The notes beneath the pieces were generated by a model, which was not told the origin of the DNA, made no database searches, and worked only from the letters and a program-made list of their open reading frames with translations. Shown here in pieces: positions 23,538-63,552 of a stretch of 64,000 nt of DNA. Position 1 is the first letter of the stretch. Every line of letters begins with the position of its first letter. The DNA comes from Candidatus Poribacteria bacterium (GTDB taxonomy: Bacteria > Poribacteria > WGA-4E > WGA-3G): NCBI GenBank assembly GCA_965242965.1, contig OZ251518.1:3232001-3296000 (forward strand), given 5' to 3'. Both the position numbers and the translations under genes were made by a program.

Positions 23538-23567
23538 GTTAACAGACTTCGTATCGCGGGGGACAGG

Positions 23568-23863
23568 CCCCCGCGATCTTAATTGTCTGAAGCAGGATTT
23601 CCAAGATTTCCAAGATTTACAGGATTATCTCCTGCGCAACGAGCATGCTTTTTTTAATGGATGCCTCTTCAGGTCCTTTAGGTCCTGCATGTCTATAGAA
23701 AAACAGGGTTTCCGTAGTTTTCAAGGTCCGTTAGGACCTTAATGGAAATGGGAGCTAAGCAAGTCAAGGCACATTAAGGACCTAAAGGACCTTAGGTTCA
23801 TCGTGTCGCACGGTGCTATAGACATTAAGGTCTTACAGACTTAAAGTCCCGAGCGGAAACGCC
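23568..23863. repeat. ~300-bp composite non-coding module (island A left module)
   Basis: Homologous to 55318-55612 and 55864-56122 (GATCTTAATTGTCTGAAGCAGG..GGATGCCTCTTCAGGTCCTTTAGG..GACATTAAGG). Confidence 0.85.
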
Positions 23864-23872
23864 ACGGTTACC

Positions 23873-24450
23873 GTAGCGCGGGGGCCTCTCCCCCGCGAGT
23901 GTTCGATCCAAACGAAAAACGCCGCTTGGAACGTAGCGCGGGGGCCTGTCCCCCGCGATCTCTCCCAAAACGAAAAACGTCCGCAGCCCAGAGACCACGG
24001 ACGTTTGCTGTTAAGACCGGCGCATGGCGAGGGACAGGCCCTCGCCCTACGCGGGAAGGCGGGGTGTTTTAGGTGACGTAGCGCGGGGGCCTGTCCCCCG
24101 CGAACGTTCATTTGTCTGAATCAGGATTTGCAAGATTAGCAAGATCTACAGGATGAAAATCTCCGCGTTTCCAAGGCCCTGCTGTGCAGCGGCAAAACGC
24201 CACGGTTACCGTAGCGCGGGGGCCTGTCCCCCGCGATCCCTCAAACAAAACGAAAACCGTCCGCAGCCCGGAGGCCACGGACGGTTTCTGTGCCACCCTA
24301 GGCACAGCGAGGGACAGACCCGCGCCCTACGGTTCGAGCGGAGTGGCTTGATGCATCGCGAGGGACAAGCGTAGGATAGACCTCCCGGTCTCAATGCACA
24401 CCCTAGGGGCGGCTCAATGCATCGCGAGGGACAGCCCCGCGCCCTACAGG
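23873..24450. repeat. REPIN-like array
   Basis: GTAGCGCGGGGGCCTGTCCCCCGCG..CGAAAAACGTCCGCAGCCC..GGCGAGGGACAGGCCCTCGCCCTAC inverted pairs. Confidence 0.85.
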
Positions 24451-24503
24451 CATGGAGCGTAGTTAGTCCCGCGAAGTCCTCAAAACAGCGCGCAACTCAG
24501 AAC

Positions 24504-24938
24504 TCATTTAAACTTCACAGTGAAAGCGACCATGCTCTCCTTCTGGACTCCCATCTGGACATCAAGAACCTCTCCTGATATCCCTCTGAAGCCAAGCCCA
24601 ACAAAAGTGGATTTGGGAAGGCTAACCGTGAGCTCCTGAACCCCTAATTCCTTTGCCTGTTCAATAATTTCGAGAATGTTCTCGGTGTCGGTAGGTTTAG
24701 GTTTGGTAAGTTGCCGTAAACCCTTGCCAACCAAAGACTGTCCTTTCCCTGCCAAAAATCTGAAGGGAGAACTGACTAGGGACACACCGACGGGTAATAC
24801 GGATACTGAAGCCATCGCTAATTTCACTAAAGCCCTTCTAGGCTTCTTAGTGGCATCAGGACTTTCTTCATCTGCCTGAACGGTTGACTCATAGTCAACT
24901 TTGGCGATGCCGTCTTTATCAACTTGAATTATAGACAT
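24504..24938 (-). CDS. Hypothetical protein, lower GC
   Basis: Open frame with AAGGAG upstream of ATG 24938; no recognisable domain. Confidence 0.55.
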   Translation of the reverse strand: MSIIQVDKDGIAKVDYESTVQADEESPDATKKPRRALVKLAMASVSVLPVGVSLVSSPFRFLAGKGQSLVGKGLRQLTKPKPTDTENILEIIEQAKELGVQELTVSLPKSTFVGLGFRGISGEVLDVQMGVQKESMVAFTVKFK

Positions 24939-25003
24939 TTCATGCTCCTTTTTCAGAGGATGGAAGATGGACGGATGCAAAAATCCGCCCATATCCAAAT
25001 GGC

Positions 25004-26827
25004 TCACTTTCGTATCACCATCTTCCGCGTCGCTGAAAAATCACCCGCCGTGAGCGTGTAGAAATACACGCCACTTGCAACAGGCTCATTCAACGCATTC
25101 CGGCCATCCCAATACGCCGCACGGCCCTTCGTTTGGTAAATGCCGGCAGGCCGCTGCCCTAACTCCAGCGTGCGAACCAACTTCCCATCCGAGGCATGGA
25201 TGGAGACTTGAATTTCCGCTGCTTCCGCCAATTCATAAGGGATCCACGTCTCCGGATTAAACGGATTTGGATAGTTGGCAAGCAGTACCGTCGCTTCCGG
25301 CTTCAAACTTGCAAGCAGTTGCTCCAGCACGACAAGCCCGCGCTGATACGCTGGTGTGGTGAGTGCCAACGCCTGCGCCTGTGCTACCCAACCCGCAACA
25401 TCTGCCGCCACGAGCACCTCGCGTCCCCCCGCCTGAACAGCAGGTGCACCGGCACCACCGAAGGCCCCTGCAACTAGCACCAAATCCTGAATGTTAACAA
25501 CACCATCGCCGTTCACATCCGCGACGTGCTCACCCGTTTTCCCGAACTGACCGGCAATCAGCACCAAATCCTGAATGTTGACAACACCATCCCCATTCAC
25601 ATCCGCGACGTTGTCAAATTCCACCTCTATCCCCTTCGCCTGCAACGCGGGAATATGCGTGTAGAGAGAGGCATAACTGAGCGGGCAGCCCTTAAGGCGC
25701 AGCCCAATGCTGTCCCAAATTATTCCGGGCAGACTCAACCCTAGCAAAGGCGACACATCCGAGACATCGGTGTCGTTGAGCCACAGCCGCGTCAAGTTTG
25801 TGAGACTTGCCAGCGGCGAGATATCCGAGACAGCGGTGCCGCCGAGACCCAGCCACCCCAAGTTTGTGAGTCCTGCCAGCGCCGAGATATCCGAGACGGC
25901 GGTGCCGTCGAGATACAGCCTCTCCAAGTTTGTGAGGTTTTCCAGCACCCCGATATCCGAAACGGCGGTGCCGCTGAGAGTCAGCCCCTTCAAGTTTGTG
26001 AGGTTTTCCAGCACCCCGATATCCGAAACGGCGGTGTCGCCGAGACCCAGCCCCTCCAAGTTTGTGAGGTTTTCCAGCACCCCGATATCCGAAACGGCGG
26101 TGTTGCCGAGACCCAGCGCCACCAAGTTTGTGAGGTTTTCCAGCACCCCGATATCCGAGACATCGGTTCTGCTGAGCCACAGCCCCTCCAAGTTTGTGAG
26201 GTTTTCCAGTGCCCCGATATCCGAAACGGCGGTGTCGCTGAGATCCAGCGTCTCCAAGTTTGTGAGGTTTTCCAGCACCCCGATATCCGAAACGGCGGTG
26301 TCGTAGAGCCACAGCCCCTCCAAGTTTGTGAGGCTTGCCAGCGGCGACACATCCGAGACGGCGGTGCCGGCGAGACCCAACTCCGTCAAGTTTGTGAGAC
26401 TTGCCAGCGGCGACACATCCGAGACGGTGGCGTAGATGAGAACCAGGTACTCCAAGTTTGTGAGGCTTGCCAGCGGCGACACATCCGAGACGGCGGTGCC
26501 GGCGAGACCCAACTCCGTCAAGTTTGTGAGACTTGCCAGCGGCGACACATCCGAGACGGCGGTGCCGGTGAGATCCAGGTCCGTCAAGTTAACTGCATGC
26601 TCCAGCCCGGTGAGATCTGCTATCTCCGTGTAAGTTGCCTTAAGCTTCGTTAACTTGCGCATCGCATCCACCGTGAGTGCTGCACCTGCCGGCAGTTCAA
26701 GGCGTGCGCGGATGGCCGCTGCTAACTCGGCATCCGGAATAGAAACCTCTGCTTGCACGGGCGGCGCGGTTAACTGCGCCAAGGCAGTTAACACCAGGGT
26801 CAAAGTTAAAAGCGTTAATCTTTTCAT
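25004..26827 (-). CDS. Secreted internalin-like LRR protein with dockerin and FlgD/T9SS-type C-terminal domain
   Basis: Signal peptide; IPDAELAAAIR cap; 22-aa LTNLxxLxLxxTAVSD repeats; DVNGDGVVNIQDLV twice; LLANYPNPFNPETWIPY..WDGRN..SGVYFY. Confidence 0.9.
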   Translation of the reverse strand: MKRLTLLTLTLVLTALAQLTAPPVQAEVSIPDAELAAAIRARLELPAGAALTVDAMRKLTKLKATYTEIADLTGLEHAVNLTDLDLTGTAVSDVSPLASLTNLTELGLAGTAVSDVSPLASLTNLEYLVLIYATVSDVSPLASLTNLTELGLAGTAVSDVSPLASLTNLEGLWLYDTAVSDIGVLENLTNLETLDLSDTAVSDIGALENLTNLEGLWLSRTDVSDIGVLENLTNLVALGLGNTAVSDIGVLENLTNLEGLGLGDTAVSDIGVLENLTNLKGLTLSGTAVSDIGVLENLTNLERLYLDGTAVSDISALAGLTNLGWLGLGGTAVSDISPLASLTNLTRLWLNDTDVSDVSPLLGLSLPGIIWDSIGLRLKGCPLSYASLYTHIPALQAKGIEVEFDNVADVNGDGVVNIQDLVLIAGQFGKTGEHVADVNGDGVVNIQDLVLVAGAFGGAGAPAVQAGGREVLVAADVAGWVAQAQALALTTPAYQRGLVVLEQLLASLKPEATVLLANYPNPFNPETWIPYELAEAAEIQVSIHASDGKLVRTLELGQRPAGIYQTKGRAAYWDGRNALNEPVASGVYFYTLTAGDFSATRKMVIRK

Positions 26828-26954
26828 TTCGATTTCTCCTTTTGTGTATCGGGACCGGGAGGTCCCTCCTACTGAAGAGGGTGGATATCAACATCCGCCC
26901 TCATTTGGATTTCAATGCACGGCGAGGGACAGGCCCTCGCCCTACGGTAACTCA

Positions 26955-27204
26955 CCGGTATGCGCGGTTTGCAACTGCGCCTACGGAGGTTGTGTGCGAG
27001 CTCGTGTGCCCGCACATGTCTTGGCTGTCTGAATCAGGATTTACAGGATTATAGGATTTCCAAGATGAGGGAGTCTCTTGTCATCGTAGACCCTCTGTCG
27101 CGGTAGGAGCGATTTCCTCATCACGATTTCTACGAGACGCGTTTTGGCTAAGCGCGCTCCTAATCCTGTCATGCCTATAATCTTGTGAATCCTGATTCGG
27201 ACAA
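26955..27204. repeat. ~250-bp composite module (island A middle module) with ~30-bp inverted repeats
   Basis: Homologous over its whole length to 57751-58002; GTCTGAATCAGGATTTACAGGATTATAGG..CCTATAATCTTGTGAATCCTGATTCGGAC. Confidence 0.85.
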
Positions 27205-27322
27205 TAAGTCCCTGATTCTAGACTCAGATGATGTTGGCCTGAGGCCGCGCGGCAAACAACATAGGATTGCCTGAGTTGCATAATCCTCGCCTATCCAGAA
27301 CATTTCGGAGACATTCAGTCTG

Positions 27323-28309
27323 TCACAGGATAGATCTAAGGATGCTCCGAACAGTTGACAACACGTCTTTTCCAACTTTCACCGCTTTGAATGCCCGCCG
27401 GAACGTTGAGGTGTCCATGCCGTTTCGTAAATCGTCTACTGCTTCGGCAATTTTCTTCATCCTATACTTTGCCATTGCTCGATTGAAGTAGGCACTGAGC
27501 TCCCTATACCCAGACTCATCAATCACTTTGTTATAAAGGTTGATTGCATCCCAGGTGTACCCCTCTTCAAGTTTCACATTTGCTAGCGAGATTAAGACAC
27601 AAGAATTTATTGGCCTTTCTCCAATCTGGGAAAGTCCAACTGTTTCCCACTCACGCCAGCTATTGAGATGATTTGCACGAGTGACCCAACCCAATGGAAT
27701 TTCCGGAATGAGAGGGACATCAACTACGCCTCGCAAAGAGACACCTATGACTTCACCGTACTCGTTTAGGACGGGGCCACCGCTGCTCCTACGCCGAACT
27801 GGGGCTTTCACAAAGAATTCCTGTGAGTCACAACCTGCCGTTCCGCGGATTTTGCCTTCCACAAGAGAACCTTCTTCACTGTCGCCCTTCCTGTTGACCG
27901 CAGCATAAACCCAAACCCTTTGTTGCGGCTCAATGGAATCGTTGTCGACTGGAGAAAGGAATGTGCCCCCAATATCGGTAACCTTAATATCGGTAACCCT
28001 TAAAACGGCTAAATCACGTTGCGGATTAATAGCAATGGCATTCTCAGCAAGGCTGAGCCCCGTTCCGGTTGCGAAATGCCGCGCCGCAATCCGGTGGGCT
28101 CCGTGGAGAACGTGATAGTTGGTAACAATCACGTTGTCTTCTATAAAGAAGCCGCTACGGAAACCGAGATTCGTTTTTATCAACACCGTAGAGTTTAACG
28201 CGGCGTTGCGTCTACTCTCGGATGGTAATGCATTTTCTACAGCCATTATGCACAACAGAAGAAGTGCCAGAACTGTGAAACGCAGGCATAATTTGTTCGC
28301 ATGTTTCAT
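27323..28309 (-). CDS. Secreted trypsin-like (S1) serine protease with C-terminal TPR
   Basis: Signal peptide; VTNYHV (His), DLAVL (Asp), SSGGPVLN (Ser); AYFNRAMAKY TPR. Confidence 0.8.
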   Translation of the reverse strand: MKHANKLCLRFTVLALLLLCIMAVENALPSESRRNAALNSTVLIKTNLGFRSGFFIEDNVIVTNYHVLHGAHRIAARHFATGTGLSLAENAIAINPQRDLAVLRVTDIKVTDIGGTFLSPVDNDSIEPQQRVWVYAAVNRKGDSEEGSLVEGKIRGTAGCDSQEFFVKAPVRRRSSGGPVLNEYGEVIGVSLRGVVDVPLIPEIPLGWVTRANHLNSWREWETVGLSQIGERPINSCVLISLANVKLEEGYTWDAINLYNKVIDESGYRELSAYFNRAMAKYRMKKIAEAVDDLRNGMDTSTFRRAFKAVKVGKDVLSTVRSILRSIL

Positions 28310-28377
28310 TTTTTGTGAATTCCTCGCTGTAGGTTAGGAGTACAGGCGGATATCGAAAGCCGCCCATACCTTGGATA

Positions 28378-28744
28378 GGAAAAACATGCATTGAGACAGA
28401 AATCCCAATGCAACGAAAATAACCCGCCACGCAAAGAATGCGTGCGGGATTGAAGATAACATGACGACGAAAGTCGCCGCTGTCAAGTGAATAAGATTTG
28501 CTTAACGCCTGTGGGTGTCGGGGGGGGGCGAGCCTCCCCTCTGGGCATTAAGCCGAACGGGAACTCGTGATGGCGCGACAACGGGCATAGACGCACGGCA
28601 AGCGCGCATCTTTCGGTGCCCAAGCAGGTCTACGGCGACCTCGGTAGCAATGGAAAAAACAATTCGCTGGTTCACGGGTATCGTTCCTCTGTTCGGTTTC
28701 AGTCTCGCGGTGGCGCGTTTTTTTCACGCGCATCACCACGTTTG
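28378..28744 (-). ncRNA. Putative ~365-nt structured ncRNA/leader, copy A
   Basis: Conserved with 61359-61728; multiple stems with compensatory/wobble changes; upstream promoters and U-tailed 3' hairpins. Confidence 0.6.
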
Positions 28745-28749
28745 CATTA

Positions 28750-28955
28750 ATGATACACAAAAATGCAATAAATGTCAAACATTTTTTTTGCGAAAAATCG
28801 TGGAAATGTTCACAATTAACCACATTCTACATAAATTTCGGTTTTTTGTCAACGTTTTTCTGCGAAAAATCGTGAAAAAGGTCAAATTATCGCGGAAATT
28901 CGTCAAAAATGTTTAAAACTGAGTTTATTTTAGCAAATGTCGCATTTTTTGTCAA
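28750..28955 (-). promoter_or_regulatory. Three tandem sigma70 promoters
   Basis: TTGACA-17-TATCAT (28778-28750), TTGACA-17-TAGAAT (28852-28824), TTGACA-17-TAAAAT (28955-28927). Confidence 0.8.
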
Positions 28956-28988
28956 GGTGATTTCGCGAAAAAAAACGCTGCTGCCACC

Positions 28989-29860
28989 GTAGCGCGGGGG
29001 CCTGTCCCCCGCGAACGTTCGATCCAAACGAAAAACGTCGCTTGGAACGTAGCGCGGGGGCCTGTCCCCCGCGATCTACCGACCGAAACGAAAAACGTCC
29101 ACAGCCCAGAGACTACGAACGGTTTCTGTGACAATCTAGGCACGGCGAGGGACAGGCCCTCGCCCTACGGTGAAAGGAGAATTTTGGCACGGCGAGGGGA
29201 ACCCGCTCGCATGCGCGTGTGGCATGCGAGGGCCCTCGCCCTACGGTTCGGCGGCGTGGTTCGGATAGCCACGAAATAAAAAGTATATTAAGGTCCTACA
29301 GACCTTGGCCCTCTTCGCGTCGCCGCGCGCTATAGACATTAAGGTCTTACAGACCTAAAGAGACGTTTCGGCGCGATAAAAACCCCTAATCCTGCTAATC
29401 TTGGAAATCTTGCAAATCCGGAGCAGGATTCTCACGGTCACGCCTGTCAAGACAATCAGGTTTCCCTGATCGTCCCTCTTATCACGATTTTCACGATTAG
29501 AGGTTCTGATGCACCAACACCCCGTGGCCTGCCACAACTGCGCCGGCGTACCAGAGTTCTAATCCTGTGAAATCCTGGAAATCTTGGAAATCCTGCTCAA
29601 TCCTGCTAATCTTGAAAATCTTGGAAATCCTGTTCATATCTTGGAAATCCTGCTCCAGACAAATGAGATCGCGAGGGACAGGCCCTCGCGCTACGGTGGA
29701 AGGAACAATCGATGCATGGCGGGGGACAGGCCCTCGCGCTACGGTGAAAGGGGACGATTTTGGCACGGCGAGGGACAGGCCCTCGCGCTACAGGAACCCC
29801 CGAACGCATCGAGACCCGAGGTCTCTCCTACGGGTGTGCATCGAAATATGAAACATCCTC
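28989..29860. repeat. REP/REPIN and AATCCTG/AATCTTG 9-mer cluster
   Basis: Many GTAG-REP hairpins and tandem AATCTTGGA/AATCCTG units; ends in an orphan TIR-like TATGAAACATCCTC. Confidence 0.8.
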
Positions 29861-29913
29861 TATTAATTCACAATTTTTCCTTGACATCAACAACAATCAA
29901 TGGTAAAATTAAC

Positions 29914-29982
29914 GAAGGTGTTTCATATATCAATGCCTTCCAAGGGGGAATAAATACGGAAACGGAGTTATGAAACACCCTA
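29914..29982. mobile_element. Minimal, degenerate copy of the TIR element without REP cargo
   Basis: GAAGGTGTTTCATA..TATGAAACACCCTA; flanks AATTAAC/AGTTAAC; shares subterminal GGAATAAATAC.GAAAC.GAGTTA with 47501-47792. Confidence 0.55.
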
Positions 29983-30011
29983 AGTTAACTAATCATGAGG
30001 AGGTGGAAGCG

Positions 30012-54444: not shown

Positions 54445-54695
54445 TAGGAATTCTCTCCTTTCTTGATGTAAAAATAGGCGTTGTCTTCCCCGCAGCAATC
54501 GGCGAGGAGTTCGTTGCCTTTCATGTTGCACCATGCCGCGATGTCCACGGGCGCGCCCGGGTCCATCGCGCGGATCTGGGCTATCTGTCCCGGTTCAAGC
54601 GGCAGCATCGCCTTCAGCAACGCGATAATCAGGTCACCGCAGCCGAGTTCGCCTAAATCGTGGACAGCATCTGGCAGGATATCAGGTAAATCCAT
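54444..54695 (-). CDS. TusA family sulfur carrier
   Basis: DLGELGCGDL, DPGAPVDIAAWC..GNEL, FYIKK. Confidence 0.85.
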   Translation of the reverse strand: MDLPDILPDAVHDLGELGCGDLIIALLKAMLPLEPGQIAQIRAMDPGAPVDIAAWCNMKGNELLADCCGEDNAYFYIKKGENS

Positions 54696-54740
54696 AGTGA
54701 ATCTCCCATTTTTCTCTGCGAGAATTGTTTTCAAAAATTA

Positions 54741-54769
54741 AGTTTACCATAAGAGTGGTTTAAAGTCAA
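54741..54769 (-). promoter_or_regulatory. sigma70 promoter for tusA-dsrE-osmC
   Basis: TTGACT-17-TAAACT with TG extension. Confidence 0.55.
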
Positions 54770-54788
54770 GCAAAAATCGTGTTAAACT

Positions 54789-56182
54789 GAGGCTGTTTCA
54801 TAAATCTGTGTAGGAGCCCTCCCGCGTTTCGATGCGTTTTGTTGGTGTGCGTATCGGGACAAGGATGTCCCTCCTACCCGGAACGATGCACCCCGGTAGG
54901 AGAGCCCTCCCGGTCTCGATGCAATAGGGCGGCAGAAAGCCCCACGGCCCGTAGCGCGGGGGCCTGTCCCCCGCGATCGGTGCATGGCGAGGGACAGGCC
55001 CTCGCCCTACGGTGAGAAGGGGCCGTTCTTATCCCGTAGCGCGGGGGCCTGTCCCCCGCGATCTCTCCTCCGAAACGAGAAACGTCCGCAGCCCGGAGGC
55101 CATAGACGTTTGCTGTCACGATCGCTGCATGGCGAGGGACAGGCCCTCGCCCTACGTGCCATGCGGCGATTGTCTATTTCTTACCGTAGCGCGGGGGCCT
55201 GTCCCCCGCGATCGATGCATGGCGAGGGGAACCCGCTCGCATGCGCGTGTGGCATCCGAGGGCCCAAGCCCTACGGGGAAAGGGGACGTTCTGAGTCCCG
55301 TAGCGCGGGGGCCTGTCCCCCGCGATCTTAATTGTCTGAAGCAGGATTCACAAGATTTACAAGATTTACAGGATTATCTCCCGCGCAATGAGCATTCTTT
55401 TTGCAATGGATGCCTCTTCAGGTCCTTTAGGTCCTGCATGTCTATAGAAAAACAGACATGCCACTGTTTTCAAGGTCCTTTAGGTCCTTAATGGAAATGG
55501 CAGCCAAGCGAGTCAAGGCACATTAAGGTCCTACAGACCTTAGGGTGCGCTGCGATGCAGGATGCTATAGACATTAAGGTCTGACAGACCTTAAACCCCG
55601 AGCGGAAACGCCCCTGTTTTCGTAGCGCGGGGGCCTGTCCTCCGCGATCTCTCCGCCGAAACGAAAAACGTCGCGGGAAACGTAGCGCGGGGGCCTGTCC
55701 CCCGCGATCTGCCGACCGAAACGAGAAACGTCCGCAGCCCAGAGGCCATAGACGTTTGCTGTCACGATCGATGCATGGCGAGGGACAGGCCCTCGCCCTA
55801 CGGTGCAAGGGGACGTTCTGAGTCCCGTAGCGCGGGGGCCTGTCCCCCGCGAAGCCTCTTGTCGTCTGAAGCAGGATTTACAAGATTTATAGGATTTGCA
55901 GGATTATCTCCCGCGCAACGAGCATGCTTTTTCTAATGGATGCCTCTTCAGGTTCTTTAGGTCCTGCATGACTATAGAAAAACGGACCTACTACATTCCT
56001 AAGGTCCGCTAGGACTTTAATGGAAATGGCAGCCGAGCGAGTCAAGGCACATTAAGGACCTAAAGGACCTTAGGTTCATCGTGTCGCAAGGAGCTATAGA
56101 CATTAAGGACCTAAAGGACCTTAGGCACGGTGAGGGAAACCCGCTCGCATGCGCGTGTGGCATGCGAGGGCCCTCGCCCTAC
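54789..56182. repeat. 1.4-kb repeat field: orphan TIR-like left end, REPINs and two copies of the left module (55318-55612, 55864-56122)
   Basis: GAGGCTGTTTCATA at 54789; REPIN units; modules homologous to 23568-23863. Confidence 0.85.
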
Positions 56183-56457
56183 GGTAATATCGATATGTCG
56201 GGGATGTCGGACGGGGACGCAGGGGTGGTTAAGGTGGGCTTTCTAATCGTTCTCGGATTTTTTTTGCCGCATTCTATGAACTTGTCTGACCTGTAGATTA
56301 ATTCATCAAAGGAAATTTTCCCGGCTTGGTATTCTTCGTTGTCCTTTTTCCAGTGCGCGATGATTTGACCTGCAGGTGGGCACGTTGAGTGGAAGAGGTT
56401 ATACGCGATGAGGGCGAGGATTGCGCCGATGAGGAGGATGCGGGTAAGTCTTTTCAT
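56179..56457 (-). CDS. Small hypothetical membrane-anchored/secreted protein
   Basis: MKRLTRILLIGAILALIAY N-terminus, two Cys; C-terminus runs into a REP. Confidence 0.5.
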   Translation of the reverse strand: MKRLTRILLIGAILALIAYNLFHSTCPPAGQIIAHWKKDNEEYQAGKISFDELIYRSDKFIECGKKNPRTIRKPTLTTPASPSDIPDISILP

Positions 56458-56463
56458 GCGGAT

Positions 56464-56500
56464 AAAAAAAGGACCCGGCCGCGCCGTGCCGCGGCCGGGG
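56464..56500 (-). terminator. Intrinsic terminator after the FGE-sulfatase gene
   Basis: CCCGGCCGCG-loop-CGCGGCCGGG then TCCTTTTTTT on the minus strand. Confidence 0.7.
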
Positions 56501-56518
56501 TAGTTGAACGGTTAAGAG

Positions 56519-57628
56519 TTAAGGTGTAACTGGCCGCACGCAACGAAAACCGATGGTGAAGTACGCGGTCGCCGGCAGCTGCTCGGAGCGATAGGAGACA
56601 CGCAAGGAATCTGCTGGACTCCACCAACTGCTGCTGCGAAACACGCGCCTGGAGTCGGTCGGGATAGTTGTGAAGTTTTCACGTAGCCATTGGATGGTCA
56701 TCCCACCGGCGATGGGGTTCCGACTGTTATCAGACTCAGCGTAGAAATCCTCATCGTATGCGTCAAGACACCATTCATACACGTTCCCCGCCATATCATA
56801 CAACCCATACCCATTCGCAGGATACTGCCCAACGGGGGTGGTACCGATGGTGGCATTTGCCGAGCGGTTCGCATCAGCGGGGGTGGGCTCGTCGTCGCCC
56901 CAGGGATACTTCTTTCCCGCGAGCCCGCCGCGCGCCGCATATTCCCACTCCGCCTCCGTCGGCAAACGCTTGCCAGCCCACTGCGCATACGCCATCGCCG
57001 CATACCAACTCACATTAACCACCGGATGGTCTGCTTTCTCTGTGGGATAGGTATTGCCAGTCCAGCGAGACCAGTGCTCGAGGTAACGGACATCGTGGAA
57101 CCTGTCCTCAATCCTGTCCTTTTGCCAGTCTGGATTCGCATCGACAAACGCCTTAAATTGCGCGTTGGTGACTTCGTATACGTCCATGTAGAACGCATCC
57201 AAGTGGACGGTATGCACGGGTTTTTCGGCATCGTATGCCTCCTCGTCCTCGCTGCCCATCTGAAATGAGCCAGCAGGAATCAGCACCATGCCTTCGGGTA
57301 TTGGCTCTTCAACGGTATAATTCAAAGTGACGGCTTCTCCTTCCCACTGCAACCCCAATGCCAAAGGACCCGGGGCAAACGGCCCAGCAATAGTCACCGT
57401 CTCGCCCCCTGGTGTTGCAGTGCCACCTGTTACTTGGAGTCCTTCCGGTGTGCCATTAAAGGTCACCGTAATCGTTGCATTGTTCTGAATCGTGCTTCCA
57501 TCTGCGGGGTCCGCCGAGAGAAACTGAATCGCTTCCACCAGTGGTTCTTCTCGGTTGCAGCTGCCCATCGCTATTGCGAAGAGACAGACTGCGAGACTTG
57601 CGAACGTTCCTAAATGTTTCAACACCAT
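56519..57628 (-). CDS. Lipoprotein with Ig-like domain and FGE-sulfatase (SUMF1-like) domain, probably non-catalytic
   Basis: Lipobox MGSC; MVLIPAGSFQMG, EVTNAQF, RLPTEAEWEYAARGG, GLYDMAGNVYEW, IGFRC; catalytic Cys pair absent. Confidence 0.85.
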   Translation of the reverse strand: MVLKHLGTFASLAVCLFAIAMGSCNREEPLVEAIQFLSADPADGSTIQNNATITVTFNGTPEGLQVTGGTATPGGETVTIAGPFAPGPLALGLQWEGEAVTLNYTVEEPIPEGMVLIPAGSFQMGSEDEEAYDAEKPVHTVHLDAFYMDVYEVTNAQFKAFVDANPDWQKDRIEDRFHDVRYLEHWSRWTGNTYPTEKADHPVVNVSWYAAMAYAQWAGKRLPTEAEWEYAARGGLAGKKYPWGDDEPTPADANRSANATIGTTPVGQYPANGYGLYDMAGNVYEWCLDAYDEDFYAESDNSRNPIAGGMTIQWLRENFTTIPTDSRRVFRSSSWWSPADSLRVSYRSEQLPATAYFTIGFRCVRPVTP

Positions 57629-57750
57629 AATTCTCCTTGCCCGCCATCAACAGCGGGCAGTAGAAATAAAACAAGTTTGCAGCGGCATCCGCGCCGCCGC
57701 GTTCATTTGTGAAAAAACCGCGTTAAAAAGCGCGGTTTTTTCAATGAGGG

Positions 57751-58002
57751 CCGGTAGGCGCGCTTTGAAACCGCGCCTCCGAAGGTTGTGTGCGGGCTCG
57801 TGTGCCCGCACATGTCTCGTTGTCTGAATCAGGATTTACAGGATTATAGGATTTCCAAGATTAGGAATTCTCTCGTCGCGGGAGACGCTCTTTCCCGGTA
57901 GGCGCGACCTCCTGGTCGCGATTTCTACCAGGCATGCTTTGGATAAGCGATGTGCTCATAATCCTGTAAATCCTATAATCTTGTAAATCCTGATTCAGAC
58001 GA
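57751..58002. repeat. ~250-bp composite module (island B middle module)
   Basis: Homologous to 26955-27204. Confidence 0.85.
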
Positions 58003-58031
58003 TTTCCACGGCGAATTAGCCGCGTGAGTCA

Positions 58032-59591
58032 TCAACGATTGACATACCGAACCAAACTCGCCAATGTCACTCTTTCTCGGTTTGGTGGATTGGCTTCGTT
58101 ATCGGCCACCTCTATGTTCTCGTCAACGAGACAAGGATCTGCATCCCAGCTCTCGTCCATCAAGAACGATGTCTCGCAGTGGAGCAGCATCGCGCCGAAG
58201 ACTTCCATGAGAATAGCGGAGCCGACAGGACCTAGCCGATTGCCACCGCCCCGGATACCTGCCTCACGCATCAGGTAGAGAAAAAGCGGCGTGCGATTTG
58301 CGAGTTTGTTGCGAGTCTCAGCATCGAGGCATGCTCCCGCCAGAATCTCACCGAGCAGGAGGTTCTGATTGTGATTAATCGGGTATCCTCGATCTGCTAG
58401 TGCTGCAGCAACGCGTTGCCCACTTGGCAATCCCAGGACATATCCTCGGAGGAGGTTACGGAAGGCCAAGGAGAGATCTTGCCTTCTTGCTTCCGGGCCC
58501 ACGACACGTTCGGGAAGTTCCACTAACTCATTCGCCAGCAGATGGTCAATCGCTTTGGAGGGCACGTAAACCTGATTCGGATTCACATCTAAGAGGAACC
58601 GCCAATCCACGGTGAGTTCCGGTGGCACTCGTCCGAAGCCGAGGGTGCGGAACCGTTTATCAAAAATCCCGATCTCTGGGTAGGTCGAGTTCGCAGGATA
58701 GTTTGAGCGCACCAAGGTGTGTCCAAACCGATAAGCGGCGGCGGAGAATTCAACCGGCATGCGGAGGCGGCCGGCAGCGTCAATCAGATGCCCGAGGAAG
58801 AAAGGATAGTCTCTTTCTCCTTCAGGTCTGTTCGCGTTTTCCTGGATCTTCTGCAGCGCGAAGTTGTAAACGTCCACGTCACAGACGCGCTGCAGAAAAT
58901 CATAAAGCACGAGAGCCTGATAGTGGTAGCGCACATCCCGTTGCACGTCCTCAAAGCGAGGTGGAGGCTCATTCGCGTTATCATGCTGAATGAGCAGGTC
59001 GATGATTCGGCGATTATGAAAGCGTAGAAACAACAAGTGCATCTGTGAGAGAAAGATGTTCTCGTCGTTACGCGGGTCGCCGATAAGTGCCGTGCCATCT
59101 GCACTGCGCGGCACATCGTTGGGATTCTCAACGTCGTTAACTTGGCTGCCGACGCGCAGTCGCCACGGTTGTTTTCTGTCGTAGAGATGCGGAGAGACAT
59201 CCGGTCCAAAACCGTACATGCTATCCAGATCAAGCGAGGCGGAGCGGAGATTCGGCAGTTCTTCAACTCGCCCTCGGGGCAACGCTTCACTCGTGAGTTC
59301 GCTTTCTGCATCCAGTGTGATGTCGTGATCCACGAACTGCGCGAAGAACGTGTAGGCGGCCGGAACATCACTGTTACCAGAAGTGTCATTGGCATCACGC
59401 ATAATCCCGCATCGTCCGCCGAGTCCGTTCGCTATCTCCTCAGCGGCAGCTCGATCTTCAATGCCGAATTCTTCCGCCCAGGTTGGTATGGGCGGATTTT
59501 GCAGCGGTAACAACATGCCGAAATTGCCAAGGCGGAGATGGTTGCTAGTCGGGACTCTGGCAATTCCGTGGGCGTTTGTTCTGTTATTCAT
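58032..59591 (-). CDS. Animal-type heme peroxidase (peroxidase-cyclooxygenase superfamily)
   Basis: FAQFVDHDIT, LDLDSMYG, GDPRNDEN, FLRFHN, EFSAAAYRFGH, RGYVLGLPSGQ, LGPVGSAI; RBS AAGGAAGG before ATG 59591. Confidence 0.85.
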   Translation of the reverse strand: MNNRTNAHGIARVPTSNHLRLGNFGMLLPLQNPPIPTWAEEFGIEDRAAAEEIANGLGGRCGIMRDANDTSGNSDVPAAYTFFAQFVDHDITLDAESELTSEALPRGRVEELPNLRSASLDLDSMYGFGPDVSPHLYDRKQPWRLRVGSQVNDVENPNDVPRSADGTALIGDPRNDENIFLSQMHLLFLRFHNRRIIDLLIQHDNANEPPPRFEDVQRDVRYHYQALVLYDFLQRVCDVDVYNFALQKIQENANRPEGERDYPFFLGHLIDAAGRLRMPVEFSAAAYRFGHTLVRSNYPANSTYPEIGIFDKRFRTLGFGRVPPELTVDWRFLLDVNPNQVYVPSKAIDHLLANELVELPERVVGPEARRQDLSLAFRNLLRGYVLGLPSGQRVAAALADRGYPINHNQNLLLGEILAGACLDAETRNKLANRTPLFLYLMREAGIRGGGNRLGPVGSAILMEVFGAMLLHCETSFLMDESWDADPCLVDENIEVADNEANPPNRERVTLASLVRYVNR

Positions 59592-59789
59592 TGTTTTCCT
59601 TCCTTTCGTCATTTGTAGGTTAAGATTCGGTAATCTTAACTCGTTCGGGCTCAGGCGAGCCCGAACTACAAGGGTTAATTTCGTATCACATCCCCGAGGG
59701 CGAGCGGGTAATGCAACCCGAGCGCCCCCCAGAAATGCGATGCTCAATGCATAGGGATTTCGTAAACCCAGTGCAACTTTGCATCAAGC

Positions 59790-60131
59790 CTATATGAGAA
59801 GCGTTTCAACACTGTTCGTTTCAGCGAAAACGCGAACGCCTTTGAGTCCCCCGGGAACCTCCTTCATGACATAGGTAGCCTCAATAGGGGTTACCACGGG
59901 ACGGGAAGTTCCTTCCGGGGGCTCGGCGTAGAAGGAAAATTCCCAGATGCCGTCGGGCGGTGGTTGCACGTAAGTGTAAGGAACGAGTTCCGGATTCGTC
60001 CATCCCGCAGATGCCACTTCGCCTTCTGCGCCAATTAAGAGCATGTCAGCACCGCTATCGGTTTTGGAACGCGACAGCGAAACCGTCTTGACAGCATGGA
60101 CTCGGTTGCCTTGCTCATGTTCGTTATTCAT
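59790..60131 (-). CDS. Small conserved-looking beta-sandwich hypothetical protein
   Basis: AEGEVASAGWTNPELVPYTYVQPPPDGIWEFSF..KGVRVFAETN; RBS AAGGAGG. Confidence 0.65.
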   Translation of the reverse strand: MNNEHEQGNRVHAVKTVSLSRSKTDSGADMLLIGAEGEVASAGWTNPELVPYTYVQPPPDGIWEFSFYAEPPEGTSRPVVTPIEATYVMKEVPGGLKGVRVFAETNSVETLLI

Positions 60132-60339
60132 CGTTCTTCCTCCTTTTGCGCGTGAGTGTTCCGCGGTGCCTCTCTGCGGCGGCAGTCGCGGTATCGGATT
60201 AAAAACATCTTCCAGTATGCGGGCACCGTTTGCTGTGCGGCGGCAGCACGCTAGTATTAAGATGTATGTCGTCATCCCTATCGGTAGGCGCGCTTTGAAA
60301 TCGGGCCTACCGGGTTTATGATACGGGTGTGGGTTCACC

Positions 60340-61104
60340 CTAGTCGACATATTCGTAAGCGTCATCGCCAAGGGCTCGGATATTGTCAACTGATTTGACA
60401 GTGAACTCTTCAGGCCAGGGGTCCAACTGTGCGTCCTGGCATGCAAGATGCGCCCTTTGGCCCGGATGTGCTTCCTGCCATTGTGCCCAGAGTCTGTCCA
60501 CCTGCGCGTGATGGAACCAAAACGCGGGGTCTCGCGGCGAAGACATCGTCGTCATGTCACCACCAATCCACACGTGTCCACGGTTGTGCGGGCCGTTTTC
60601 AAGCCTTCGCGCAAATTGATAATAACTCCTCTGAGATAGGATCGCTTCGATCTGCGCCTCGTCAGTGAACCAGCGCATTTCCCCTGGTTCAGGTTGTTCA
60701 TCGTGGCGGGGCCCGGGGTTCCTCTGCCATCTCGATCTCTCCGGGAACAGCCGGTTCTCCGGATCTGGGAATCCTTCCAAGTGGCCGCCATCAGCGTTCC
60801 AATCCCAATAGGGAATCGCCAGCGAATCATCAATCTCGCGAAGTCTTCTCTCAAAAACGATGAGGTAGGCGCGATGCCACGGCAAGAATCTCCGATAGCC
60901 CAATGGCCCCGACATTGAACCATGCATACGATGATGGGAACGTCGAAACCCATCTGGTTCCTGAATCATCGCCGCATGGATTTGGACTAGATTTCCGTAA
61001 GTGCCATTGGTCATTAACGTTGAGATAGCCCTGTTCAAGGCACCCCAATCTTCATCTGTCAATGCCAGCGTGCTTTGACGCTGAATTGGCATTGGCATTA
61101 GCAT
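60340..61104 (-). CDS. Tyrosinase (type-3 copper protein)
   Basis: CuA His: IH..MHG..FLPWHR; PYWDW; CuB: HNRGH..DPAFWFHH. Confidence 0.9.
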   Translation of the reverse strand: MLMPMPIQRQSTLALTDEDWGALNRAISTLMTNGTYGNLVQIHAAMIQEPDGFRRSHHRMHGSMSGPLGYRRFLPWHRAYLIVFERRLREIDDSLAIPYWDWNADGGHLEGFPDPENRLFPERSRWQRNPGPRHDEQPEPGEMRWFTDEAQIEAILSQRSYYQFARRLENGPHNRGHVWIGGDMTTMSSPRDPAFWFHHAQVDRLWAQWQEAHPGQRAHLACQDAQLDPWPEEFTVKSVDNIRALGDDAYEYVD

Positions 61105-61358
61105 TTTTAAACTCCTTGCGTTGTCCCATTACCGTGCCTGCAGCACCGGTAATGGGGTGCAATTTCCGCGTCACCTTTTCTGAGATGCATGACGCGGAAG
61201 TAGGTTAAAAGCATCGTTGTCACTGTAACAGTGAAACTCGTTACGTCTATTGATAGCCCAAGTGTCCGTACTGCCAAAAAGGTGCAGCACCAGCCATCCG
61301 CGACGCAAAAGCGACGCGCAGCAGCAAAATGGAACAAACAGGGGAAATAACAACAGAT

Positions 61359-61728
61359 AGGAAAACATGCACCGGGGATGGAGCCTCGATGCAACGAAAA
61401 TAACCCGCCACGCAAAGAATGCGTGCAGGGTCGAAGACAACAAGACGACGAAAATCGCCGCTGTCAAGTGAATAAAGTTTGCTTAACGCCTGTGGGTGTC
61501 GGGGGGGGTCGAGCCTCCCCTCTGGGCATCAAGCCGAACGGGAACGCGTCGTGACGGCGCGACAACGGGCATAGATACACGGCGCGCGTGCATCTCTCGG
61601 TGCCCAAGCAGGTCTACGGCGACCTCATTAGCAATGGAAGAATTAATTCGCTGGTTCACGGTATCGTTCCTCTGTTCGGTTTCGGTCTCGCGGTGGCGCG
61701 TTTTTTTTCGCGCGCGTCACCACGTTTG
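61359..61728 (-). ncRNA. Putative ~365-nt structured ncRNA/leader, copy B
   Basis: Paralog of 28378-28744 with pairing-preserving substitutions. Confidence 0.6.
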
Positions 61729-61733
61729 CATTA

Positions 61734-61907
61734 ATGATACACAAAAATGCAATAAATGTCAAACATTTTTTGCGAAAAATCGTGGAAATGTTGACAATTC
61801 ATTTTATTTTACCACGATTTTCGGTTTTTTGTCAACGTTTTTCTGGGAAAATCGTGAAAAATGTTTAAAACTGATTTTATTTTAGCAAATGTCGCATTTT
61901 TTGTCAA
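61734..61907 (-). promoter_or_regulatory. Three tandem sigma70 promoters
   Basis: TTGACA-17-TATCAT (61762-61734), TTGACA-18-TAAAAT (61835-61806), TTGACA-17-TAAAAT (61907-61879). Confidence 0.8.
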
Positions 61908-61941
61908 CGTTATTTCGCGAAAAAAAAACGCTGCTGCTACC

Positions 61942-62445
61942 GTAGCGCGGGGGCCTGTCCCCAGCGATCTCTCCGCCGAAACGAGAAACGTCCGCAGCCC
62001 GGAGGCCATGGACGTTTGCTGTCACGATCGGTGCATGGCGAGGGAAACCCGCTCGGATGCGCGGGTGGCATCCGAGGGCCCTCGCCCTACGGTGAAAGGG
62101 GACGTTCTTAGTCCCGTAGCGCGGGGGCCTGTCCCCCGCGATCTCTCCGCCGAAACGAGAAACGTCCGCAGCCCAGAGGCCATGGACGTTTGCTGTCACG
62201 ATCGATGCATGGCGAGGGAAACCCGCTCGGATGCGCGGATGGCATCCGAGGGCCCAAGCCCTACGGTGAAAGGCACCGTTCTTATTCCCGTAGCGCGGGG
62301 GCCTGTCCCCCGCGAACGTTGGCATGGCGAGGGACAGACATCGGGACAAGGATGTCCCTCCTACCCAGACGCGTCCCGTGATCGGTGCATGGCGAGGGAA
62401 CCCCGCTCGCATGCACGTGTGGCATGCGAGGGCCCAAGCCCTACG
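61942..62445. repeat. Tandem REPIN array
   Basis: Two near-identical ~175-bp units plus a partial third. Confidence 0.85.
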
Positions 62446-62726
62446 GGGACCGGAAAATCCTTTGGAATTCGCGCATCTTCCCGAGAATTACAAAAAAATG
62501 TTCTTTTTGGGAACCTTTTCCTCACCTAGGTGTTTAAGTAAGTAATATCACATTGATTTGATGCGTCTCGCATTTGATTTTGACACATCGTTTTTGTGGT
62601 ATCCTATATCAACTTGCTGGATGCGAATACCACCCGCGCCTCCCGTGCGGCTCTCATCCGTCGAAAAAAAAAGAAGAAATGAAACCTGCATGCCTTGAGG
62701 AAGGCAGGCAAAGAGGAGAAATCAAA

Positions 62727-63056
62727 ATGAAAAACAGACAGATGCTGAGACTACTCAGCCTTACCGTGCTGTGCGCAATGGCGTTCACTGCCACTGCCGC
62801 GTTCGCGACGAATGAACAATGCCCTGACGATGCCGTGGTAGCTGCTGTCAGCGCATTCATAGTTGCTGCTGCCGCCGTTGAGGAGGCCCAGGACAACTAC
62901 GATCAAGCACTCGCCTCAACTTCTTTGATGAGGCTGCATTTTGTCATCGGTGCCGCAATCAATTTAGCTTCGGCTAAGGCGATAGCAAGTCAACGCCGCG
63001 CGGAAGCCAAAACCGCCATCCGTGCTCGCTTGGCGTGCTTAAGATCGATCGGCTAA
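62727..63056 (+). CDS. Small secreted Ala-rich helical protein
   Basis: RBS GAGGAG; signal peptide ending AFA; two Cys in mature part. Confidence 0.6.
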   Translation: MKNRQMLRLLSLTVLCAMAFTATAAFATNEQCPDDAVVAAVSAFIVAAAAVEEAQDNYDQALASTSLMRLHFVIGAAINLASAKAIASQRRAEAKTAIRARLACLRSIG

Positions 63057-63148
63057 CACCCGGTGGCATTCGTCGCTGCGAACTCCCGTGGGCGTTGTAA
63101 GTTTTATCCGTAAAACGTCCTACGGTTCGCAGTGCTCTTAAAGTTACC

Positions 63149-63382
63149 GTAGCGCGGGGGCCTGTCCCCCGCGAGCTCTCCGCGCACTCCAACGATCGCG
63201 GGGGACAGGCCCCCGCGCTACGATAAGAATGACGTTTTCCTTTCATCGTAGTGCGAGGGCCCTCGGATGCCACACGCGCATCCGAGCGGGTTTCCCTCGC
63301 CATCGTCGGCGCGTTCCAACGTTCGCAGGGGACAGGCCCCCGCGCTACGGGGAAATCGAGACCGGGAGGTCTCTCCTACCGG
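63149..63382. repeat. REP/REPIN cluster
   Basis: Inverted GTAG-REP pairs and an extended REP. Confidence 0.8.
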
Positions 63383-63552
63383 GGAAACGGAATCGTTTGG
63401 AAAACTCAATGCCTCTACGATTGGTGAGATTTGGTATTCTTGTTGGATAATTTTGGAAATTCTGCTCCAAATTTCCAATTTCTTTCTGTTTATGCTATAA
63501 TCTATTGAAATTGCCAAATTTGATGCATGATTCTGAAAAGGAGAACGCTAAC

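Follow-up and report, generated by a model that had tools for sequence, protein, structure and literature searches.

A putative portable expression cassette with stacked promoters and a long structured 5' leader ahead of accessory operons in one small Poribacteria lineage

The window analysed here, a 64,000-nucleotide (nt) stretch of a Candidatus Poribacteria bacterium genome (assembly GCA_965242965.1, contig OZ251518.1, positions 3,232,001 to 3,296,000, renumbered from 1), carries on its minus strand two copies of a conserved non-coding unit, copy A at 28955-28380 and copy B at 61907-61361. The unit is ~0.65 kb long (0.65-0.9 kb as the family range) and consists, in order, of a palindrome of the repetitive extragenic palindrome (REP) type, two to four near-consensus sigma-70 promoters, an RNA of ~360-365 nt and a co-oriented gene, with the leader conserved up to ~250 nt beyond the RNA in many copies. 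The RNA itself is composed of a hairpin P1, a 146-nt multi-helix domain, a poly-C hairpin H6, and the hairpins H7, T1 and T2, the 3' hairpins being U-tailed. An initial annotation of the letters had described a conserved non-coding block at both places, each with three stacked minus-strand promoters, and both statements were borne out: the copies align on the minus strand over ~29010-28380 and ~61960-61361 (87% mean column identity over 831 columns, unrelated flanks included), and each promoter site agrees with the consensus at 11 of 12 letters. The features of the two copies and their first genes are as follows.

28971-29097, minus strand: two 60-nt units of REP-type palindromes bordering copy A upstream (tandem repeat, period 60, 2.1 copies; inverted pairs I1, I2 and I4)
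28750-28955, minus strand: three copy A promoters (28955-28927, 28852-28824, 28778-28750), each with a 17-nt spacer
28707-28739, minus strand: P1 hairpin with an A-rich loop, ~6 nt past the predicted start (helix 1: 11 pairs, 4 both-side changes, 85% of cells paired; also present in the unconstrained fold)
28552-28695, minus strand: central domain of 146 nt, in which a long-range helix closes a multi-helix junction; candidate sensor (models R1/R2 at 156/150 bits)
28500-28553, minus strand: H6, a 10-bp hairpin whose large loop holds a G-run and the poly-C tract at 28520-28528 (helix 11, 92% paired)
28455-28484, minus strand: H7, a two-part hairpin with a U-rich tail (helices 13 and 14; terminator-like in a scan)
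28413-28448, minus strand: T1, a bulged 10-bp G+C-rich hairpin (28448-28423) and U-rich tail (helix 15, 99.7% paired)
28380-28412, minus strand: T2, a 10-11-bp hairpin (28412-28387) and U-rich tail, TGTTTTT in DNA (terminator-like in the scan; helix 16, 2 both-side changes, 93% paired)
27323-28309, minus strand: first gene behind copy A, encoding a trypsin-like peptidase whose N-terminus is hydrophobic, 69 nt past the repeat end (Pfam Trypsin_2, E 3.1e-18)
61734-61907, minus strand: three copy B promoters (61907-61879, 61835-61806, 61762-61734)
61361-61728, minus strand: copy B RNA with P1, central domain (61533-61678), H6 with poly-C, H7, T1 (61430-61404), T2 (61393-61368) and U-rich tail
61105-61360, minus strand: further copy B leader ('domain II'), pyrimidine-rich at first and reaching the tyrosinase start codon
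60340-61104, minus strand: first gene behind copy B, a tyrosinase (Pfam Tyrosinase, E 1.5e-36)

In total, 7 promoter sites were found in copy A and 5 in copy B, as against 1.3 and 1.0 expected from shuffled sequences; those of copy B are made of 72-nt tandem modules (period 72, 2.2 copies, 77% matches). Transcription of copy A is predicted to start near 28744, ~7 nt past the last -10 box. The terminator-like REP palindromes upstream of copy A probably shield the cassette against transcription arriving from that side. Immediately upstream of copy B, at 61940-62315, lies a 174-nt tandem repeat (2.2 copies, 95% matches) composed of the REP palindrome and a second hairpin module. Between promoter and start codon the unit thus carries G+C-rich, U-tailed hairpins of the intrinsic-terminator kind, T2 and H7 recognised by the scan and T1 being a bulged hairpin of 10 bp.

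When folded without constraints, copy A reached -137.7 kcal/mol (z -5.14) and copy B -140.8 kcal/mol (z -3.86), and for neither copy was any of 100 shuffled sequences as stable. Both terminal hairpins and the long-range helix that closes the central domain, as claimed in the initial annotation, reappeared in this fold, and the pairings quoted there are all present and are kept paired between the copies through G-U and A-U changes. A 16-helix model drawn from copy A was evaluated on alignment A2, for which 29 of 32 BLAST-detected copies were used, one truncated and two partial ones being set aside (alignment A3 holds 28 of the 29 rows, leaving out a copy with a 15-nt insertion). Of 2,618 cells, 90.8% were paired, compared with 29.9-38.0% in slid controls whose partners had been moved by 1-3 columns, and 19 pairs had changed on both sides; 0-1 of 500 shuffles reached the observed values. 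For the central domain in the model-fitted alignment A4, which also underlies the tree and contains each copy once (all 38 model matches, from 37 loci), 88.4% of cells were paired versus 32.7-39.5% in the slid controls, with 12 both-side changes. These counts support the preserved pairing claimed in the initial annotation.

Individual helices illustrate how pairing is retained. H5 occurs in two length variants, both of which pair, and at its base switches from A-U to C-G in 13-16 sequences; one pair of H7 switches from A-U to G-C in 7 sequences; and T2 shows C-G, U-G and U-A alternatives at its pairs. The sequence of T1 is almost invariant in clade II, the main clade of the tree described below, and in divergent copies its stem and loop letters differ while the hairpin is kept. 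Overall, pairing is preserved at 68-70% identity between clades. Like a riboswitch, the 146-nt domain combines covarying stems with conserved junction nucleotides, the unpaired junction stretches being highly conserved to invariant. H3, a local hairpin without covariation, competes with a 4-bp alternative of the unconstrained fold, so that the junction topology of the central domain is provisional. No conserved open frame was found, the longest frames of 17 copies varying in strand, frame and length (62-149 codons). An antisense frame of 133 and 129 codons in the window copies was rejected as coding, its translations shifting frame and other copies differing.

A run of C residues is a further constant of the RNA. 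It comprises 8-9 C in the window copies (28520-28528 and 61501-61508) and 7-11 among copies generally, is found in nearly every copy and species, measures at least 8 in 16 of 18 copies of relatives, and in clade II pairs with a neighbouring G-run. The first 80 nt past T2 are likewise C-rich and G-poor (21-26 C versus 14-21 G in 13 long-type copies). Rho loading, a seed for G-rich partners and slippage are candidate roles for the C-run and the C-rich spacer past T2.

The initial annotation held the element to be present twice, which is right for the window and an undercount for the genome. The genome to which the window belongs (G000, 5.70 Mb in 2 contigs) contains 17 near-full copies with 70-100% identity to copy A (BLAST with a 383-nt core), plus fragments, and a covariance model of the central domain gave 20 matches, the three extra ones being divergent or decayed. 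Strict promoter matches numbered four in one of the 17 copies, three in twelve, two in three and one in one, and among copies the promoters are as conserved as the RNA. Model R1 found the RNA in 4 of 61 genomes of the family, with 20 matches in the own genome, 9 and 7 in two congeners and 2 in the single genome of a second genus, so that the RNA-bearing genomes cover two genera of Candidatus Poribacteria; the same order of parts recurs in the relatives' copies. No R1 match was obtained in the 27, 27, 2 and 1 genomes of the other four genera of the family. The broader model R2 returned the same four genomes of 39 searched and none of 40 other genomes at the order level.

Searches further afield gave the same picture. 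The 583-nt unit had no blastn match in phage and plasmid collections; a degenerate pattern of the central domain hit 37 stretches on metagenome contigs, none of which matched R1; and a T1 pattern hit 19 stretches on genome contigs, 8 of them in Poribacteria records and the 11 others without an R1 match. As the initial annotation had anticipated, Rfam 15 recognised no family at gathering score in the 64-kb window, gave only chance-level matches at E up to 10 on 28200-29200, and yielded nothing relevant at E up to 1 on 7 divergent loci. Searches of the literature on Poribacteria non-coding RNA and intergenic metatranscriptomics, supplements aside, turned up nothing on the element. Neither Rfam 15 nor the searched literature describes this RNA family, and the proposal of a lineage-specific structured RNA is supported.

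The central-domain tree resolved two clades (support 100/99). One is older, its 16 rows being drawn from all four genomes, with cross-species pairs at conserved loci among them; the other numbers 22 rows, of which 17 belong to the own genome and sit on short branches. The 290 nt of the copy B leader are 100% identical to G000:C1:2612207-2612496, with parts common to two other copies and found nowhere else in the genome, and the two copies with this identical downstream sequence carry central domains of different subclades. Copies therefore exchange parts. Assembled short-read DNA contigs from four runs end at the repeat, and a unique contig covers 27079-28432.

The three extra matches depart from the standard form. 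Two damaged copies lie 2 kb apart (G000:C1:29411-29555 and C1:31583-31792): one, inside an operon and behind an FGE-sulfatase gene fragment, is promoterless with a decayed T1, and the other has full promoters and a truncated, chimeric RNA in which everything after H5 is replaced by ~400 nt of unrelated sequence. A divergent member with two promoters precedes a pair of ABC-2 permease genes at G000:C1:2970111-2970238 and G001:C29:5259-5387, an RNA-gene pair shared by the own genome and G001 with tree support of 100/97. Because the member is kept at the same locus in the congener, this may be the oldest setting of the leader.

The orientation of the copies relative to genes was not random. In the own genome the first real downstream gene was co-oriented in 17 of 17 copies, starting 69-739 nt past the core, while the nearest upstream genes were on the same strand in 8 cases, on the opposite strand in 8 and undetermined in 1. 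Of the relatives' 18 copies examined, one lay at a contig end, and 16 of the 17 with data had a co-oriented downstream gene; the single exception also lacked promoters. Similarity continued past T2 in 13 of 17 copies, as a pyrimidine-rich stretch followed by a less conserved part to ~250 nt with hairpins of its own, and this conserved part occurs only adjoining the RNA. From T2 to the start codons there was 1 weak promoter-like site in 3,962 nt, and the cargo is therefore, as we infer, transcribed from the cassette through H7, T1 and T2. The initial annotation had left the choice between an abundant free-standing non-coding RNA and an attenuator or riboswitch leader; co-orientation, the leader past T2 and the near-absence of any further promoter favour the leader or attenuator over the free-standing RNA, and the cis-regulatory reading is well supported.

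The genes so headed are unrelated to one another, as had been suggested, the first proteins belonging to different Pfam families. The range extends from trypsin-like peptidase, leucine-rich repeat (LRR) protein with dockerin and type IX secretion system (T9SS) sorting tail, and tyrosinase with haem peroxidase to FGE-sulfatase with dockerin, cohesin or caspase domain, WD40, TPR and FRG+TPR proteins, together with patatin, a long coiled-coil protein, ABC-2 permease and several proteins without family. About 10 of the 17 first proteins have a signal-peptide-like or membrane-like N-terminus by eye, and many downstream proteins have hydrophobic N-termini or T9SS tails. The cargo theme is one of accessory, extracytoplasmic or eukaryote-like proteins rather than of one pathway.

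The surroundings of six copies (7-20 kb each) were compared with the two congeners, G001 and G002. The cassette-headed segments and their syntenic sites were as follows.

23538-29990, minus strand: segment A, 6.4 kb, copy A cassette, operon (peptidase, LRR/dockerin/T9SS-tail protein, two small open reading frames) and REP clusters; 61 nt in G002 and 102 nt in G001 between flanking orthologues
54687-63478, minus strand: segment B, 8.8 kb, copy B cassette, operon (tyrosinase, a 218-amino-acid (aa) open reading frame, haem peroxidase, FGE-sulfatase) and REP arrays; ~188 nt in G002 and ~96 nt in G001 between flanking matches
C1:82234: segment of 6.4 kb; 1.9 kb in G002, and the G001 contig ends there
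C1:4746496: segment of 8.2 kb; 1.8 kb in G002, and the G001 contig ends there
C1:5266901: segment of 6.7 kb; 4.0 kb in G002 and 1.3 kb in G001
C1:2769735: segment of 6.8 kb; 2.7 kb in G002 and 195 nt in G001

The cassette-plus-operon segments were without syntenic counterpart in 6 of 6 cases in G002 and in 4 of 4 in G001 where contigs allowed the comparison. They differ between congeners through either gain in the own lineage or loss in the others. A tyrosinase operon stands behind a cassette in both the own genome and G002, where the cassette-headed tyrosinase/peroxidase unit is at a different, non-syntenic place. Within the own genome, window positions 58032-61415 and G000:C1:2607497-2612852 appear to be a recent segmental duplication of the tyrosinase, 218-aa frame and haem-peroxidase operon, with the 290 nt of leader identical and the RNA domains different.

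Neither transposase nor integrase was found in segments A and B. The cassette is not bracketed by inverted repeats, the pairs in 28300-29250 being REP-REP pairs or A/T-rich promoter pieces, and no target-site duplication was visible at the edges of segment A. On these last two counts a miniature inverted-repeat transposable element (MITE) or Correia-type repeat was rejected. REP palindromes, which cluster at the segment edges, are abundant: contig C1 has 836+844 exact occurrences of the 21-nt palindrome and 1302+1321 when up to 2 mismatches are allowed, and the window has 30 (including 28993-29073, 29670-29738, 55040-55850, 61946-62314 and ~20 more places), often in arrays with a terminator-like neighbouring hairpin. 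A second short intergenic repeat family, of reiterated CAGGATT/CAAGATT-like words, occurs at 23600-23640 and in more than 60 further places, as well as upstream of several G000:C1 copies and at the empty segment A site in G001. The own genome has a single 16S gene (G000:C1:3555006-3556556), in whose 900 upstream nt we noted one consensus promoter and several AGGACCT-type palindromes, which are also present at the segment A edge.

The closest described kind of element is the putative mobile promoter, defined as an upstream region at least 80% identical over at least 50 nt before non-homologous genes of one genome (Nijveen, Matus-Garcia and van Passel 2012; PMC3575422). The present copies are 83-92% identical over 360-700 nt and their downstream proteins fall in unrelated Pfam families. 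Most putative mobile promoter families are pairs of ~100 nt, and riboswitch-type RNA motifs can travel on them by a mobilisation route that is unknown according to the authors (PMC3575422). In contrast, the cassette family counts ~20 units of 0.65-0.9 kb, each combining a triple promoter, a large fold without Rfam match and tandem terminator hairpins, and the unit moves, or varies, in step with its cargo operon. Correia, ERIC and REPIN, which are intergenic repeats that carry promoters, are named in the same paper (PMC3575422). The cassette resembles these in being dispersed, intergenic and promoter-bringing, and those repeats are co-transcribed with neighbouring genes; it is unlike them in its size of at least 650 nt, its ~20 copies, the lack of bracketing terminal inverted repeats and its strict orientation to genes. 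Correia, ERIC and REPIN repeats are ~100-160 bp long, with terminal inverted repeats and hundreds of copies.

With attenuation leaders and riboswitch regulons the cassette shares a promoter-proximal fold, a conserved junction, covarying stems and U-tailed hairpins before the coding region, and, as in riboswitch regulons, a genome carries many copies, placed before genes for secreted or surface proteins. Second-messenger riboswitches precede many surface-protein genes. Unlike these regulons, however, the copies match no Rfam riboswitch, are 83-92% identical including the promoter, have distant terminators and yielded no convincing antiterminator by eye. Phage late-promoter/terminator units and put-type RNAs are processive antitermination systems. 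The succession of strong promoter, element, terminator or terminators and long secreted or surface operon resembles such systems and the RfaH/LoaP leaders (PMC12691694), whereas each of the 25 genomes searched has a single NusG-family gene, hence no specialised paralogue, and the search for a phage context was negative. The length of the leader, its C-rich, G-poor stretch and the conserved C-run also recall Rho-dependent leader attenuation (PMC5314796); unlike in that mechanism, the cassette's conspicuous stops are hairpins of the intrinsic type, and a role for Rho is purely conjectural.

We regard the unit as a portable expression cassette, stacked strong promoters plus a long structured attenuating 5' leader, placed before accessory operons in a single small lineage of Poribacteria, and give this reading about an even chance. 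It has to be set against simpler accounts. The copies could be passive portable promoters that supply strong constitutive transcription and a stabilising 5' untranslated region, with the hairpins as leaky insulators or RNA-stability elements and nothing sensed; this fits the pattern of similar upstream regions before unrelated genes (PMC3575422), the equal conservation of promoters and RNA, the failure to find either a switch structure or a partner protein, and the placement of copies at the head of variable segments. Such a promoter, however, needs no 360-nt fold with invariant junction nucleotides kept across two clades and two genera, and two to three consecutive U-tailed hairpins before a gene would be costly unless read-through were controlled; moreover, T2 covaries, and the hairpin itself is therefore under selection, so that we consider the account possible at best. 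More doubtful is that the terminated RNA of ~360 nt is itself the product, a multicopy trans-acting small RNA whose copies and promoters raise the dose and whose C-run seeds G-rich targets, downstream transcription being leakage. C-rich seeds are known from other small RNAs, and stacked consensus promoters, a 5' hairpin, defined U-tailed 3' hairpins and a C-run of at least 8 in 16 of 18 relatives' copies would suit such a molecule; yet in 33 of 34 cases with data the gene that follows has the same orientation, the conserved leader extends past T2, the genes downstream lack a recognisable promoter of their own, and the clade II C-run is paired with the neighbouring G-run.

A selfish or neutral repeat, functionless itself and dispersed by recombination between the abundant REP elements, would account for the ~20 short-branch copies in the own genome, the mosaic copies, the REP clusters at segment edges and the narrow distribution (4 of 61 family genomes), but we think it quite improbable, given that the unit has no bracketing terminal inverted repeats, segments A and B contain no transposase or integrase, orientation relative to genes is non-random and pairing is kept at the low identity between clades. 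Least of all would we expect the conserved parts to act as DNA, for example with the T1 palindrome as operator, roadblock or recombination site. The near-invariance of T1 in clade II next to a freely covarying T2 points in this direction, but divergent copies alter the letters of the T1 loop and stem and keep the hairpin, and the remainder of the unit shows the one-strand, G-U-tolerant covariation of an RNA, which makes the proposal highly improbable.

For the attenuating leader, we envisage that the three stacked promoters would fire strongly and that P1 would protect the 5' end of the transcript. By default most polymerases would stop at T1 and T2, perhaps also at H7, releasing an RNA of ~330-365 nt, and transcription of the cargo genes would depend on those polymerases that continue past these hairpins. 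With its invariant unpaired stretches, the junction domain of 146 nt appears the likeliest site at which a signal, be it a ligand, a protein or the polymerase itself, might set the read-through rate. As the same leader stands before ~20 unrelated operons, these would then make up a single regulon, defined by the RNA, of extracytoplasmic and eukaryote-like proteins.

A number of points weigh against the attenuating cassette. A conserved alternative pairing that would undo T1 was not found by eye; the best antiterminator candidate, 6 bp between the 3' arm of H5 and the 5' arm of T1, does not covary in a copy with changed T1, and a classical terminator/antiterminator switch is therefore not established. 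The terminators lie ~110 nt behind the junction domain, unlike in compact riboswitches, and a metabolite sensor is made less likely by cargo genes that have no pathway in common. The aligned sequences are closely related, and they supplied the structure to which A4 was then fitted, which biases the pair statistics in the model's favour; the genes come from our own longest-ORF (open reading frame) script rather than from annotation; and the transcription start, the RNA ends, termination and read-through are all predicted from sequence. Nor did a partner protein emerge among the NusG, ANTAR and CAT_RBD searches.

Four known mechanisms were rejected individually. Processive antitermination of the RfaH/LoaP type was set aside because each of 25 genomes has exactly one NusG-domain match and therefore no specialised paralogue. 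An ANTAR-controlled leader is at odds with the occurrence of ANTAR in G000 and G001 and not in the RNA-bearing G002 or G004; ANTAR is also present in 9 of 12 g2 and 12 of 12 g5 genomes, all without the RNA. For BglG/SacY-type antitermination, 0 CAT_RBD matches were obtained in the own genome (94.7% complete). As to an rRNA-type leader, the T1 loop shares only a 7-letter core with the word upstream of the single rRNA operon that we take to be boxA-like.

We offer one extension speculatively, as possible rather than probable, namely that the leader is a plug-in module whose 146-nt junction is a new aptamer or polymerase-binding domain sensing one global cue, such as a second messenger or a host-derived signal, and is copied before gained or duplicated operons. 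Because the promoters are of sigma-70 consensus type, both termination and read-through are accessible to assay, in vitro or in a laboratory host, with no need to cultivate the organism.

Poribacteria are uncultivated, and their secreted and eukaryote-like proteins are thought to matter for life in the host; to our knowledge almost nothing has been established about how these proteins are controlled. The element is a large new structured RNA that can be tested for a ligand or partner, and it is an unusually clear and large example of promoter-plus-leader reuse, which bears on how newly placed genes come to be expressed. If the attenuating reading is correct, a terminator-gated leader before ~20 operons would provide a first handle on the control of secreted and eukaryote-like proteins in Poribacteria, and if the plug-in extension also holds, the module would enrol ~20 sets of such proteins of this sponge-symbiont lineage in a single RNA-gated regulon.

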